This document shows, one piece after another, positions 5,378 through 64,000 of a stretch of 64,000 bases of DNA (position 1 is the first letter of the stretch; each line of letters starts with the position of its first letter). Under the pieces are notes generated by a model. The model ran no database searches. It was not told where the DNA came from and worked only from the letters and a program-made list of their open reading frames with translations. The position numbers and the translations under genes are program-made. Source of the stretch: Escherichia phage vB_EcoM_112; sequence record NC_024125.2; one strand, given 5' to 3'.

Positions 5378-5637
5378 TATTTAAAACGAATAGTCGAATC
5401 CTTGAAGAATAGTCCAGAACATACTGTTCCTTCTACTTTCTGTCCAGTAGGTCCAATAGCACGAAATCCAGTATGCTGGAAATCATTTTCAGAGCAACCG
5501 AACCAATTGTATCCAGTGATTTCAATATTAGTAAAACCGCTTGAAGACAAAACTTTGGTTGCATTATCAGCATCAGTACATCCTATTAAAGACACTGCTA
5601 ATACTAATGCTGCAATAGAACGATTAACATATTTCAT
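5377..5637 (-). CDS. small lipoprotein (signal peptide, lipobox LIGC), about 86 aa
   Basis: Hydrophobic N-terminus ending LIGC; ATG at 5635-5637 (tracked start 5646 is GTG). Confidence 0.55.
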   Translation of the reverse strand: MKYVNRSIAALVLAVSLIGCTDADNATKVLSSSGFTNIEITGYNWFGCSENDFQHTGFRAIGPTGQKVEGTVCSGLFFKDSTIRFK

Positions 5638-10067: not shown

Positions 10068-11387
10068 TCATACATAAAATACATCATAACGACCACGGGT
10101 AACACCAACATAAAGAAGTTGTTGGGCCAATTCAGCATCTGCATAATGAATACAAGGCGTATAGATGAAAGCACGGTCTACAGACATACCCTGAGCTTTA
10201 TGGAATGTTGACGCAGGAAGTGCTTTCACTTTACTAAACTGTGATTTAGCATCCCAAAAATCACTCCACGGGGCTTTTCCGCCTTTATTCCAATTTTTAT
10301 AAGTTTCTGCTGTTTTACCTAAAAATAAGTTAAACTTATATAGCTCTTCATCAGATGAAATTATTTTAATCTTTTCACGATAATATTCATCATCGCCGTA
10401 AGTTTCTACTGTTAAATCCCAATGACGAATTAAGTATTCTCCAGAAACACCACGAGCTTTAACAAAGGTTGATGTATACTCTGCTTCTATAATACGAACT
10501 AATTGTCCGTTATTAAAAATAATTTCTGACACAGGCTTTCCATCAATTTTATATGTTTTAATTAATGGTTCCTGCATTACAATAATTTCACCGACAATAA
10601 AATCTTTATCAGTTTCAAAAATCTTTTTACGAATAATGCTATTTAACTTGTCAACAGATTTATTCGTAAATGCCATTACGCGATTTTCAAACAAATCATC
10701 TAGTGATTTGACGATTGAAAAATAATTTACCATAAAATCGCGTAAAGCGGTATCACCAGTAAATCCACGTACTCCATGCCCGTCAACAACTTTATCATAA
10801 ATCCACTTACCGTTACGAACGTCAGTAGCTACATCAATAATAGGAGCATTACTGCGTTTAACTTCAGTGAGTTCACACTGATAAAAATCTTTGTGTGTAA
10901 AGAATGGACTGATATAAGCAGTGTTTTCTCCTGGGTCAACAGGTCTAATCTGCTTATTATCACCTATTCCAATTATAGTACACCACGGCGGGATAGTTGA
11001 AAGCAGAATTTTAAATAGCTTTCTATCATACATTGACACTTCGTCGCAGATTAATACTCTGCATTTAGCTAAATCCGGTACTTCTTTTTGTTCAAAAAGA
11101 ACGTTTTCTTCATATGTTACTGGGTTAATTTTAAGAATGCTATGAATAGTACTTGCTTCTTTCCCTGATAGTTTTGAAAGAATCTTTTTAGCCGCATGAG
11201 TAGGAGCTGCTAAAATAATACCAGTTTCACCCGTAGATATTAAAGCTTCAATGATGAACTTAGTAAGAGTAGTCTTACCGGTACCAGCAGGTCCATTAAT
11301 AGTTACATGATGTTTCTTTTCTTTAATAGCCTTCATAACAATGTTAAAGGCATTTTTCTGGCCTTCGGTCAAATCATCAAATGTCAT
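10068..11387 (-). CDS. dda: Dda 5'-3' DNA helicase (SF1B), 439 aa
   Basis: Walker A GPAGTGKT; length and N-terminus MTFDDLTEGQKNAF. Confidence 0.9.
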   Translation of the reverse strand: MTFDDLTEGQKNAFNIVMKAIKEKKHHVTINGPAGTGKTTLTKFIIEALISTGETGIILAAPTHAAKKILSKLSGKEASTIHSILKINPVTYEENVLFEQKEVPDLAKCRVLICDEVSMYDRKLFKILLSTIPPWCTIIGIGDNKQIRPVDPGENTAYISPFFTHKDFYQCELTEVKRSNAPIIDVATDVRNGKWIYDKVVDGHGVRGFTGDTALRDFMVNYFSIVKSLDDLFENRVMAFTNKSVDKLNSIIRKKIFETDKDFIVGEIIVMQEPLIKTYKIDGKPVSEIIFNNGQLVRIIEAEYTSTFVKARGVSGEYLIRHWDLTVETYGDDEYYREKIKIISSDEELYKFNLFLGKTAETYKNWNKGGKAPWSDFWDAKSQFSKVKALPASTFHKAQGMSVDRAFIYTPCIHYADAELAQQLLYVGVTRGRYDVFYV

Positions 11388-48572: not shown

Positions 48573-49574
48573 TTACTTAATTAACTGTAAAGCTTGTTCT
48601 AAACGATCAAGACGATTAACAGATTCTTCCCAAATCCTTTTAGCCTGCTCATATTCTTTCTGCGCTTTATTAGAAATTTCTAGAACTTCTTTATAAGCTT
48701 TTTCTAGTGCAATAACTTCTGGACGAATTTCTACCGGTTCAGGTGAATCATCAAGATTATCCATTAGTTCCTCAAGGGTAGTTTCTTCTTTAGGAGTATT
48801 CACAATTTCATCACATTTTTGCTGGTAAATTTCTTTATCAGTCGGTGAGTACGCACACTTTACTTCACGAAGACTAATTACAATTTTATATCCTTCCCAT
48901 CCGCATATATTCTTAAAAGGATATGTATGAATACTTTTTACAGTTTCCATACAGCCCAAAGCCGTCTCTAATTGATGAGTTATAGTGCTAGCAATTGAGA
49001 AAAATTTATTAATGTTCTTTTGATTAGCTGCTGGTGTAAAAAATCCATAATTCACAAAAATAGCTACTTTATTTTTATCAAGCTCATATTCTTTTACGAT
49101 AATCATATCAGAAGCCAAAGGATGAATTTGACGATAATCGCCATAACATAATTTAGAAGCTGATTTTAGAATTTGTCCTTTGAAAAGTCTGAAATTACTA
49201 ATCCAACGACGAGTAAAAATATTCTCAGGGTCTTCTTTGATATTAAGATGATAAGAATTAACATCACCGAACCAATTATATCCTACTACATCTTTAGTTC
49301 GTTTAATTTCTTTCCCAAAATTACCAAGAATATCCCTATTAACCAAATATGAAAGAAGACGAGACCCTTTAAAGGTTTTCTTAATGGCATCTTTATCTGT
49401 ACGACTAGAAATTTCACGAACTTCATGAATAAATTTGCCGGAAGAAACAATACTTGCATCAATATTATTGAGCCATTGATTGATAATAGAAAGAACGATA
49501 TTTTGACCAAACATCGGTATAGCTTTATCATCAATAACGCTGTTGAACGATTTAATATATTCGTTGCGAGTCAT
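48573..49574 (-). CDS. hypothetical protein with C-terminal coiled coil, about 333 aa
   Basis: ATG at 49572-49574 with GAGGAG RBS; tracked start overlaps promoter -10. Confidence 0.6.
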   Translation of the reverse strand: MTRNEYIKSFNSVIDDKAIPMFGQNIVLSIINQWLNNIDASIVSSGKFIHEVREISSRTDKDAIKKTFKGSRLLSYLVNRDILGNFGKEIKRTKDVVGYNWFGDVNSYHLNIKEDPENIFTRRWISNFRLFKGQILKSASKLCYGDYRQIHPLASDMIIVKEYELDKNKVAIFVNYGFFTPAANQKNINKFFSIASTITHQLETALGCMETVKSIHTYPFKNICGWEGYKIVISLREVKCAYSPTDKEIYQQKCDEIVNTPKEETTLEELMDNLDDSPEPVEIRPEVIALEKAYKEVLEISNKAQKEYEQAKRIWEESVNRLDRLEQALQLIK

Positions 49575-61087: not shown

Positions 61088-61625
61088 TTACTATTTCCAA
61101 AAGTTTATTATTTTTAAGGTAATTAGCCTTTTCTAGGACTTCAGAAGCATATTTAGAACCAGCTTTAACATTCCATCCCGAATTATAAGAGGATATTGCT
61201 TTTCTTATATCGCCCTTATGTATATTTAACCAATAAGAAAGTTCAATGTACGCCCAGGAAGCTGAATTGGATCGTTTATTCAACATTCTTTTTATTTCAG
61301 CATCGGTCATATTATAACCAAGTTCCTTAACTCTTGCTCGCATAGTAGGCAAATAATTTTGGAACATTCCGTAGGCGTGATGCTTTGGTTTAGATTTTAA
61401 ATTAACTCCGCCAGAGCTTTCTTGCCATAAAATAGCAGCCATTATATGACCTAATCCGCTCTTGTGGATGTTTTTATGTGTTTTATATTTTCCATCCTTA
61501 GAAAATTGTTCCCCGAATTGATACGCGTAACGCATGTTATCGAGTTGGACATTACTGAAAGTATGCTCGGAGCTATGTGCCATCATTGAAATGGCCAATA
61601 GACCAGCGAGTAGTGCTTTTCTCAT
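61080..61625 (-). CDS. periplasmic lytic transglycosylase-like (SLT domain) protein, 181 aa
   Basis: Signal peptide; SLT-like motifs WQESSGG, YGMFQ, SSYNSGW. Confidence 0.55.
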   Translation of the reverse strand: MRKALLAGLLAISMMAHSSEHTFSNVQLDNMRYAYQFGEQFSKDGKYKTHKNIHKSGLGHIMAAILWQESSGGVNLKSKPKHHAYGMFQNYLPTMRARVKELGYNMTDAEIKRMLNKRSNSASWAYIELSYWLNIHKGDIRKAISSYNSGWNVKAGSKYASEVLEKANYLKNNKLLEIVND

Positions 61626-61632
61626 GCTTACC

Positions 61633-62094
61633 TCATTTAGTTTTAATTACTGCTTTAGAAGCCTTTCCTGGTAAACGGCGACTGTTGATAATTGCCATCC
61701 TACATTGAAGTGATGGGTCTTTGAACTTCTCATTAGGTTTACAAACTGTAAATCCAAGCCAAAGATTTCCATCTGTAATTTCTAAACGTCCAGGACGATA
61801 TTCAACCCCATCAATAAAATCCTCGTCAATGTCAGGACGCGGAGGCATACTCAGGAATTCATTAACTTCTAAAACATGGTCTTTTATTTTATGGAATAAT
61901 TCAAAAACATATGTCTCATCAATCTCCCGTTGAATTGCACGATCAAGAAGATGTTGAGAATATTTTAGATGAAACGATGAGACTCCTGCTGCTTTTGATG
62001 CCTCACGAATCTCATTGTTAATTTGACGAAACTCCGACTCAAAATGACGACGAAGCTTATTTCGACGGATAAAAACTTCTGTATTGATAGTCAT
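61633..62094 (-). CDS. regB: RegB sequence-specific endoribonuclease, 153 aa
   Basis: Length and synteny; early promoter upstream. Confidence 0.8.
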   Translation of the reverse strand: MTINTEVFIRRNKLRRHFESEFRQINNEIREASKAAGVSSFHLKYSQHLLDRAIQREIDETYVFELFHKIKDHVLEVNEFLSMPPRPDIDEDFIDGVEYRPGRLEITDGNLWLGFTVCKPNEKFKDPSLQCRMAIINSRRLPGKASKAVIKTK

Positions 62095-62121
62095 GTTGTT
62101 CTCCTCTTAACTGATAGAAAA

Positions 62122-62151
62122 ATTATACCACAGTCAAGAGGAAAAGTAAAC
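62122..62151 (-). promoter_or_regulatory. T4-type early promoter (GTTTAC-N18-TATAAT) upstream of regB
   Basis: Plus gtaaac 62146-62151, attata 62122-62127. Confidence 0.6.
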
Positions 62152-62153
62152 AG

Positions 62154-62474
62154 TTATTCTTTAAATCTAATCAATTTATTCATAGACTTTGAAACTTCTG
62201 CACGAACCTCATGTAGATTTTTGAGCTGTTCAAGACGCTGCTCATAGTAAGCAATTTCATCTTCTTCGAGACAGTCCTGTGAATCTTCTTTAAGATAACG
62301 TGCATAGTCCTGGAAAGCGTTACGAACTACTTCCTGGAAGTCATCAAGACTTTGAATTTTCTTAGGAGCAACAGATACACGACGAGGGGCAGTATAATAC
62401 TCATAACCAAACCCTGCGCTTAATTGAGCCATTAGTATTTTTCCTCTGGTTGGAACACTGCGCGGCAAGCCCAC
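62154..62474 (-). CDS. hypothetical protein, 106 aa
   Basis: ORF track. Confidence 0.5.
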
Positions 62475-62698
62475 ATACTGGCTTCTTTGAGTTTCGTTTT
62501 AGCAATAGTTAACTGATCGAGGCTTTCGGCGTAATTCTTCGCGAGTTCATCATCTTCACAGCTATCAAATGCTTCCCAAAATTCATCGTATAAAGCATCA
62601 AAGATAAGTCCTAAACGAACTTCAGCGTCTTTAATAGCATTTACTTTACCGATTTTTTCGTCGGTGTGTGGCTTATAACCTTTAATATCTTCAATCAT
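62432..62698 (-). CDS. hypothetical protein, about 88 aa; by position possibly the vs.4/Acb2-type anti-CBASS protein
   Basis: ATG at 62696-62698 with GAGGAAG RBS; second ORF after regB; no sequence-level confirmation. Confidence 0.4.
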
Positions 62699-62912
62699 AT
62701 TTGACTTCCTCACCAGTGCATAAATCATATTCAACTAAACGAATAGGTTCATGAATGCCATATCCCTGAACAGAAATTTCTGTCGTGGGATAAATTCCAT
62801 CAATATCGCCCATATTCCACGCTTCATTAAATTGCTGTTCACCTGAATTACTAAACCATTCGGCGAAAGCATTTAACACATCTTCAGAGCCTTCAATAAT
62901 TATCTTTGCCAT
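62691..62912 (-). CDS. hypothetical protein, 73 aa
   Basis: ORF track. Confidence 0.5.
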   Translation of the reverse strand: MAKIIIEGSEDVLNAFAEWFSNSGEQQFNEAWNMGDIDGIYPTTEISVQGYGIHEPIRLVEYDLCTGEEVKYD

Positions 62913-63274
62913 TACAAACTCTCGGTAAAGGTACGAGCGATAACGTCGCGCTGCTGTTCCGGAGTCAGAGAGTTAAAGCGAACTGCATAACCGGATACAC
63001 GGATGGTCAGCTGCGGATATTTTTCCGGATGCTTAACTGCATCTTCCAGAGTTTCACGACGCAGAACGTTAACGTTCAGGTGTTGACCACCTTCAATTTT
63101 AACTGTAGGTTGTGGCTCAATTTCAATTTCACGGGCATGCAAACCATAGAAAATTTCTGGGTCTACAAAAGAGTCCTCTTTAAAGGTTTTAGAGACAATA
63201 ATTCGTGCTTGAATACCATCTTCAAAATAAATAGTACCTTTATGTGTGCCTTCAAGAATTTGATATGCTTTCAT
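62912..63274 (-). CDS. autonomous glycyl-radical cofactor-like protein (GrcA/YfiD family), 120 aa
   Basis: C-terminal glycyl-radical motif [27 protein letters not shown]. Confidence 0.7.
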
Positions 63275-63281
63275 ATAAACC

Positions 63282-63611
63282 TCAATTAGAAAATAAATTT
63301 ATCCAAGATTGTTCTTTAATTAAAAATGGCTCAGAATCATATGCCATTAAACTTTGGGTAATTAATCCTTTAAAAGGTCCATCAATAAATTCCATGGTAA
63401 AATACGGAATTTTATTCATTAGCCGTGAATTAGGAGCAGTGCACAAAACTCTGCATCCTTTGAATACACCTTTTTGTAATTTGTATTGCTTGGGATAAAA
63501 TTCGCTTAAAATGTTGTTATTTGCCAAAATTTCAAAATGATTTACCAATTTATTTTTAATAGTTTTTGGCGAAAAATAAAGATATTCGAAAAGCTGTGTG
63601 TCTGTCATCAT
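63282..63611 (-). CDS. hypothetical protein, about 110 aa
   Basis: Tandem ATGs at 63606-63611 coupled to upstream stop. Confidence 0.5.
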
Positions 63612-64000
63612 TGCATTCCGATTACGAAAAACTGCGGACGAGTAATACCACCAATGCAACATTTACTATTACAGCAGTAGTGTACAGTGTCAATATGGAC
63701 GCTATAAATCTTATCCATATCAGGAGATTTGACAGGCTCATCAATTATATACAAAATTCGCGAAAGCGATAAACCTCTGAACTTACTTCCTTTATTACCA
63801 ATAAAACTGCGCACAGAATCAGTAAATAAACGAAAACGTATATCATCATTAGAATAACGCGAAAATTCCTTTTTAATGTTATTTGCAGAAATTTTAGCGT
63901 AAGCTGAAGTATTAGAAAGAACAATAACTGTTCCGCCATCATACAGCCAATTAGCAGCAAAGTTAGTCACAGCAATTGATTTACCGGATTGACGTCCACC
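63608..64000 (-). CDS. partial CDS (N-terminus beyond window end), P-loop NTPase-like
   Basis: Frame open to the window edge; Walker A GGRQSGKS at 63977-64000; Walker B-like ILYIIDE. Confidence 0.45.
   Translation of the reverse strand, partial: GGRQSGKSIAVTNFAANWLYDGGTVIVLSNTSAYAKISANNIKKEFSRYSNDDIRFRLFTDSVRSFIGNKGSKFRGLSLSRILYIIDEPVKSPDMDKIYSVHIDTVHYCCNSKCCIGGITRPQFFVIGMQ

Follow-up and report, generated by a model that had tools for sequence, protein, structure and literature searches.

Vs.4 of phage T4, now named Acb2 (anti-CBASS 2), is a protein whose characterisation dates from 2023 (Jenson et al. 2023, PMC10097602), and its anti-CBASS phenotype was demonstrated by knockout of vs.4 (PMC10097602, PMC12657218). 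The T4 hexamer takes three cyclic dinucleotides; the signal is thereby sequestered and CapV is inactive (PMC10097602, PMC10312549). Dissociation constants for binding of 3',3'-cGAMP by T4 Vs.4 have been reported as ~30 nM (PMC10097602) and ~84 nM (PMC10312549). The T4 protein binds cyclic dinucleotides but neither cA3 nor cAAG, and a D61R mutant is likewise without cA3 binding (PMC10312549). In the Panoptes system the decoy 2',3'-c-di-AMP is sequestered by T4 Acb2, which sets off the defence, and this triggering is lost in the binding-site mutants Y8A and F82C (PMC12657218).

The functional residues of the T4 protein, which was crystallised and is active as residues 1-88, are clearly defined: cGAMP is stacked by Y8 and F82 and held by hydrogen bonds or salt bridges from Y8, H11, K23 and R79, the hexamer interface is made up of L29, F33, A66, A73 and A77, and a genetic screen returned the mutations T12I, L60F, S74N and A77I, of which T12I, S74N and A77I were reported to abolish CapV inhibition (PMC10097602). 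In acb2, T4 escapers of Panoptes carry E26*, E26K, C78W, F82C or P84Q, or frameshifts at G7, G30, L31 and D49 (PMC12657218).

An Acb2 orthologue in a T4-like phage

The window analysed here, a stretch of 64,000 nucleotides from Escherichia phage vB_EcoM_112 (NC_024125.2), contains on its minus strand a frame of 88 codons plus stop, with its ATG at 62698 and a TAA ending at 62432 (Table 1). A preliminary description had placed an ORF of ~88 aa at exactly this interval, leaving the strand unstated, and had called it the second ORF after regB; this holds in plus-strand coordinates, where regB is followed by vs.3 and then by vs.4, and in the direction of transcription vs.4 lies upstream of regB. 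From position and size it had proposed a protein of the vs.4/Acb2 type, and had named a lack of homology to Acb2-family proteins as the finding that would speak against this. The proposal is borne out by the matches to 7UQ2, PF24729 and phrog_717, by synteny with T4 and by the hairpin fold, and the homology is unambiguous.

A phmmer search against all PDB chains returned one distinct sequence, 7UQ2 “Vs.4” (E=4.4e-53), aligned over residues 1-88 with 83/88 positions identical (94%). The Pfam profile PF24729 (Acb2/Tad1 hairpin, Acb2_Tad1_hairpin) matches with 71 bits against a cutoff of 27, and the top PHROG is phrog_717 (E=5.6e-32), to which Jenson et al. 2023 assign the Vs.4 homologues (PMC10097602). 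When the protein was used as a tblastn query, 1230 phage records matched, and in 1226 the match spanned 80% or more of the query; vs.4 is thus confirmed as a real gene, far beyond a chance ORF. Its T4 counterpart, at NC_000866 63078-63344 (267 nt), has equal length and position. The ORF is an orthologue of T4 vs.4 (acb2) in a T4-like phage of the genus Tequatrovirus, and almost certainly encodes a hexameric cyclic-dinucleotide sponge which counters CBASS.

The fold search leads to the same family. An AlphaFold2 model, computed from the single sequence as a monomer without alignment and of low confidence at residues 1-6 and in the C-terminal tail, has a mean pLDDT of 87 and forms a two-helix hairpin with helices at 11-45 and 50-81. 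Using this model, Foldseek against the PDB gave the 7UQ2 chains as best matches (E about 1e-9, TM 0.74), followed by Acb2 of the Pseudomonas phage PaMx33 (8H2X and 8H2J, TM 0.71-0.72), with generic helical hairpins as the lower matches. The model is uninformative on the pocket, because the ligand pocket of the crystal hexamer is built from the same N- and C-terminal segments that have low confidence. PaMx33 Acb2 was not linked by sequence in the phmmer search of the PDB at E<=0.01; the Pfam profile made this link, as did the fold search. Tad1, an anti-Thoeris sponge, has the same Pfam hairpin domain; among the 50 Foldseek PDB hits listed there were no Tad1 chains, and the top seven were all Vs.4 or Acb2.

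Table 1. Features of the vs.4/acb2 locus in window coordinates
Feature	Position	Strand	Details and evidence
regB	61633-62094	-	Pfam REGB_T4, E=8e-69
vs.3, 92 aa, function unknown	62154..62432	-	phrog_2037, E=2e-40
vs.4 stop / vs.3 start overlap, 1 nt (TAATG)	62432..62432	-	junction AGGAAAAATACTAATGGCTCA
vs.4 / acb2 coding sequence	62432..62698	-	88 aa + TAA; translation, PDB 7UQ2, PF24729, phrog_717
vs.5 stop (TGA) / vs.4 start overlap, 8 nt, ATGATTGA	62691..62698	-	ORF coordinates and junction GTCAAATATGATTGAAGATAT
Shine-Dalgarno GAGGA	62707..62711	-	8 nt 5' of the vs.4 ATG; read from upstream sequence GGTGAGGAAGTCAAATATG, same in T4
vs.5, 73 aa, function unknown	62691..62912	-	phrog_1986 end to end, E=1e-43
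vs.6, 120-aa GrcA/YfiD-like autonomous glycyl-radical cofactor	62912-63274	-	Pfam Gly_radical, E=2.8e-18; annotated so in T4

Start site, expression signals and neighbouring genes

The list of open reading frames gives the longest version of the vs.4 frame as 100 aa, from a TTG at 62734, and the question of whether this N-terminally extended form is the real product could be addressed from its context. The TTG lies within vs.5, and the sequence before it (CCTATTCGTTTAGTTG) contains no Shine-Dalgarno; at 62698, by contrast, the ATG follows GAGGA at the right spacing; the TTG start is unused in all four annotated records checked (T4, T2, KMB40 and Bas42), and the crystallised, active T4 protein corresponds to the 88-residue form. 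We regard the extended product as having almost no chance of being the true one and retain the ATG. Elsewhere in the interval, other-frame ORFs on the minus strand are found at 62401-62505 (34 aa) and 62509-62601 (30 aa), both TTG-started, and the ORF list has no plus-strand ORF of 30 aa or more in 62432-62698.

The gene order regB, vs.3, vs.4, vs.5, vs.6 on one strand is that of T4 NC_000866, and the annotations of T4, T2, KMB40 and Bas42 agree on the slot of vs.4 between vs.3 and vs.5 in this regB-to-vs.6 early-gene block. Many Tequatrovirus genomes align with the surrounding DNA at 96-98% identity, none of the matching records exactly, and the window therefore belongs to a T4-like phage other than T4. 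The 1-nt overlap of vs.3 and vs.4 is annotated likewise in T4, where vs.3 ends and vs.4 begins at 63078. The overlaps joining vs.5, vs.4 and vs.3 suggest a translationally coupled block, and vs.3, its start overlapping the acb2 stop, may be co-expressed with acb2. A scan of 61500-64000 found eight promoter-like sites against 8.1 in shuffled sequence and two terminator-like sites against 1.7, in neither case an excess; since these counts match shuffled sequence, no promoter specific to vs.4 can be claimed. One terminator-like hairpin, at 62467-62484, lies on the non-coding strand. Between vs.3 and regB, just upstream of regB, there is a promoter-like site on the minus strand at 62122-62150 (TTTACT-17-TATAAT with an extended -10 TG), which we treat as no more than a lead, given that shuffled sequence yields as many such sites as the region.

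The vs.3 product differs from T4 Vs.3 by a single residue, T to E in AYY(T/E)QRLEQ; in the family search phrog_2037, of unknown function, was the sole family above threshold, with Tex_N at 18.6 bits below its cutoff of 32. For vs.5, an equal length is annotated in KMB40 and Bas42. Comparison with the T4 reference (the NC_000866 locus, 5382-5558 of the locus extract) showed a 1-nt deletion in T4 vs.5, GC-GAGTGG against GCCGA(A/G)TGG in the window, T2, KMB40 and Bas42; this shifts the frame in T4, so that the tail of its annotated 58-aa Vs.5 is out of frame, and in the same T4 region another reading frame still encodes the same C-terminal sequence save one residue. The gene acb1 (T4 gene 57B) lies in T2 ~10 kb beyond vs.4 in plus-strand coordinates, and at that distance would fall past the window end.

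Residue conservation and the predicted sponge

Compared with T4 vs.4, the gene has 22 nucleotide differences in 19 codons, 14 of them synonymous and five non-synonymous, the latter giving E13D, L44F, N46S, C50D and F52L. None of the five falls at a published ligand contact or interface residue. All 13 functional positions (Y8, H11, T12, K23, L29, F33, L60, A66, A73, S74, A77, R79 and F82) are unchanged; these include the residues of the cyclic-dinucleotide pocket (Y8, K23, H11, S74, R79 and F82), and the hexamer-interface residues L29, F33, A66, A73 and A77, for which the agreement with T4 is one of sequence conservation only. The positions at which T4 escapes Panoptes (G7, E26, G30, L31, D49, C78, F82 and P84) are likewise all wild type.

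With these residues in place, we infer from the T4 and Bas38 protein experiments that the window protein too forms a hexamer, binds cGAMP with nanomolar affinity, counteracts CBASS and triggers Panoptes. The 10-kDa acidic product folds as a two-helix hairpin, and six copies would interlock as a hexamer, leaving three pockets that each lie between two protomers. Each pocket is predicted to hold one 3',3'-cGAMP or related cyclic dinucleotide, stacked by Y8 and F82 and engaged by Y8, H11, K23 and R79 through hydrogen bonds or salt bridges. The second messenger would be held and not degraded, so that a CBASS effector such as the phospholipase CapV would stay inactive and the phage could complete its cycle. 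At the same time, this binding activity would leave the phage open to attack by Panoptes (OptSE), a defence that detects loss of its decoy 2',3'-c-di-AMP.

Comparison with known Acb2 proteins

T4 Vs.4/Acb2 (NP_049728; PDB 7UQ2) is the characterised protein to which the window copy was compared residue by residue. The two have in common their length of 88 aa, the 83 identical residues, the genomic slot, the start context, the overlap with vs.3, and D61 and T68; they differ at the five substituted positions, where C47-x-x-C50 of T4 becomes C47-x-x-D50.

All of the substitutions except E13D fall close together at the hairpin turn (residues 44-52), where position 50 is C in T4, Y in Bas38 and D here. 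This clustering, together with the proposal of the Panoptes authors that phages may escape by retuned Acb2 specificity (PMC12657218), could be read as a true Vs.4/Acb2 orthologue whose affinity or ligand spectrum has moved, e.g. away from 2',3'-c-di-AMP or towards another signal such as 3'cADPR. A related suggestion is that residues 44-52 are under diversifying selection from a host factor recognising Acb2 or its ligand spectrum (e.g. Panoptes-like decoys), in which event the specificity of the D13/D50 allele would be measurably unlike that of T4 Acb2.

Acb2 of Bas38, a Tequatrovirus of the BASEL collection (sequence from the supplement of the Panoptes study, PMC12657218), bears directly on both suggestions. 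It is identical to the window protein at 86 of 88 positions, with F44, S46 and L52 common to both, and has E13 and Y50 where the window protein has D13 and D50. Expressed with VnOptSE, Bas38 Acb2 inhibits colony formation as T4 Acb2 does (PMC12657218); since it has all three changes and triggers Panoptes, L44F, N46S and F52L are experimentally compatible with function. For the remaining two, E13D is conservative and position 50 has a different residue in each of the three alleles compared; we found no published construct with D13 or D50, and the argument from Bas38 against a shifted spectrum covers the other three substitutions. A second comparison takes in the complete protein: bas42_0233 of Bas42 (Escherichia phage AndreasVesalius, MZ501050) is identical to it at 88 of 88 positions, in surrounding DNA that is ~97.7% identical, and Panoptes restricts Bas42 more than 100-fold (PMC12657218). 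That restriction would support an active window protein to the extent that it depends on acb2. Because Bas38 and Bas42 have these changes yet remain Panoptes-restricted, retuning at 44-52 is disfavoured; diversifying selection on the turn seems to us very unlikely, and a shifted spectrum or affinity, with no substitution at a contact or interface residue, is a reading to which we give scarcely any credence. We keep to a cyclic-dinucleotide sponge of the T4 type.

PaMx33 Acb2 (8H2X, 8H2J; Huiting et al. 2023; Cao et al., PMC10312549) is far more distant, only ~24% identical, and has the same hairpin fold and the same sponge mechanism, a hexamer with three cyclic dinucleotides, in which Y11 corresponds to T4 Y8 and K26 to T4 K23 (PMC10312549). 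It differs in that it also binds two cyclic trinucleotides via R67 and T74 (PMC10312549). The dual-specificity subclass of the PaMx33/JBD67 type has Arg and Thr at these two positions, and the window protein, like T4, has D61 and T68 there. A dinucleotide-only spectrum is expected because D61 and T68 are as in T4, and the window Acb2 probably does not bind cyclic trinucleotides.

The distribution of the exact protein is broad. Roughly 490 Tequatrovirus alleles are 90% or more identical to it, and at least 58 deposited records of phages, Bas42 among them, encode the identical 88-aa sequence; in 55 of the 58 listed it is given as “hypothetical protein” or “Phage protein”, by a bare gene number, or without annotation, two use protein names of other phages, and one (PV857777.1) has “anti-CBASS protein 2”. 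Gene, structure, mechanism and exact protein sequence are all already published or deposited, and the window holds an ordinary intact copy with nothing new about it; its value is one of annotation, in that the identical proteins now called “hypothetical” can be named Acb2. A curious case is PV654520.1, a 142-kb “Pseudomonas phage vB_PSGBLB0006” with P. aeruginosa ATCC 9027 listed as host, which encodes a 100% identical Vs.4 at 48867-49130; its host label or its assembly may be wrong.

Vs.4 of T2 (NC_054931, T2_122) occupies the same locus and from K9 onward is identical to T4, so that the window protein differs from it at the same five positions. The T2 gene has lost 2 nt in codons G7-Y8 (GGTTAT to GG--AT, ~10840-10860 of the NC_054931 locus extract, homologous to window 62675-62680), and its canonical frame reads MIEDIKG and then stops; the annotated T2 ORF of 86 aa restarts at a TTG and is without the cGAMP-stacking Y8. 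T2 escapes Panoptes through its disrupted Acb2 (PMC12657218), a published remark that agrees with this deletion. Inactivated alleles of this kind do exist, and in phage EP32a the tblastn match is truncated to residues 2-34 only, so the window gene might be imagined as a decaying copy which keeps its ORF and has lost the sponge function. The G7-Y8 codons GGTTAT are intact in the window, however, within a full-length reading frame in which the functional residues are all conserved; there are 14 synonymous changes to 5 that alter the protein, and the identical protein is kept in those 58 or more genomes. Decay is accordingly as good as discounted here, and the intact allele is the one we adopt. 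An intact acb2 would predict that the source phage is resistant to cGAMP-type CBASS and sensitive to Panoptes, whereas a T2-type allele with the G7-Y8 deletion predicts the opposite.
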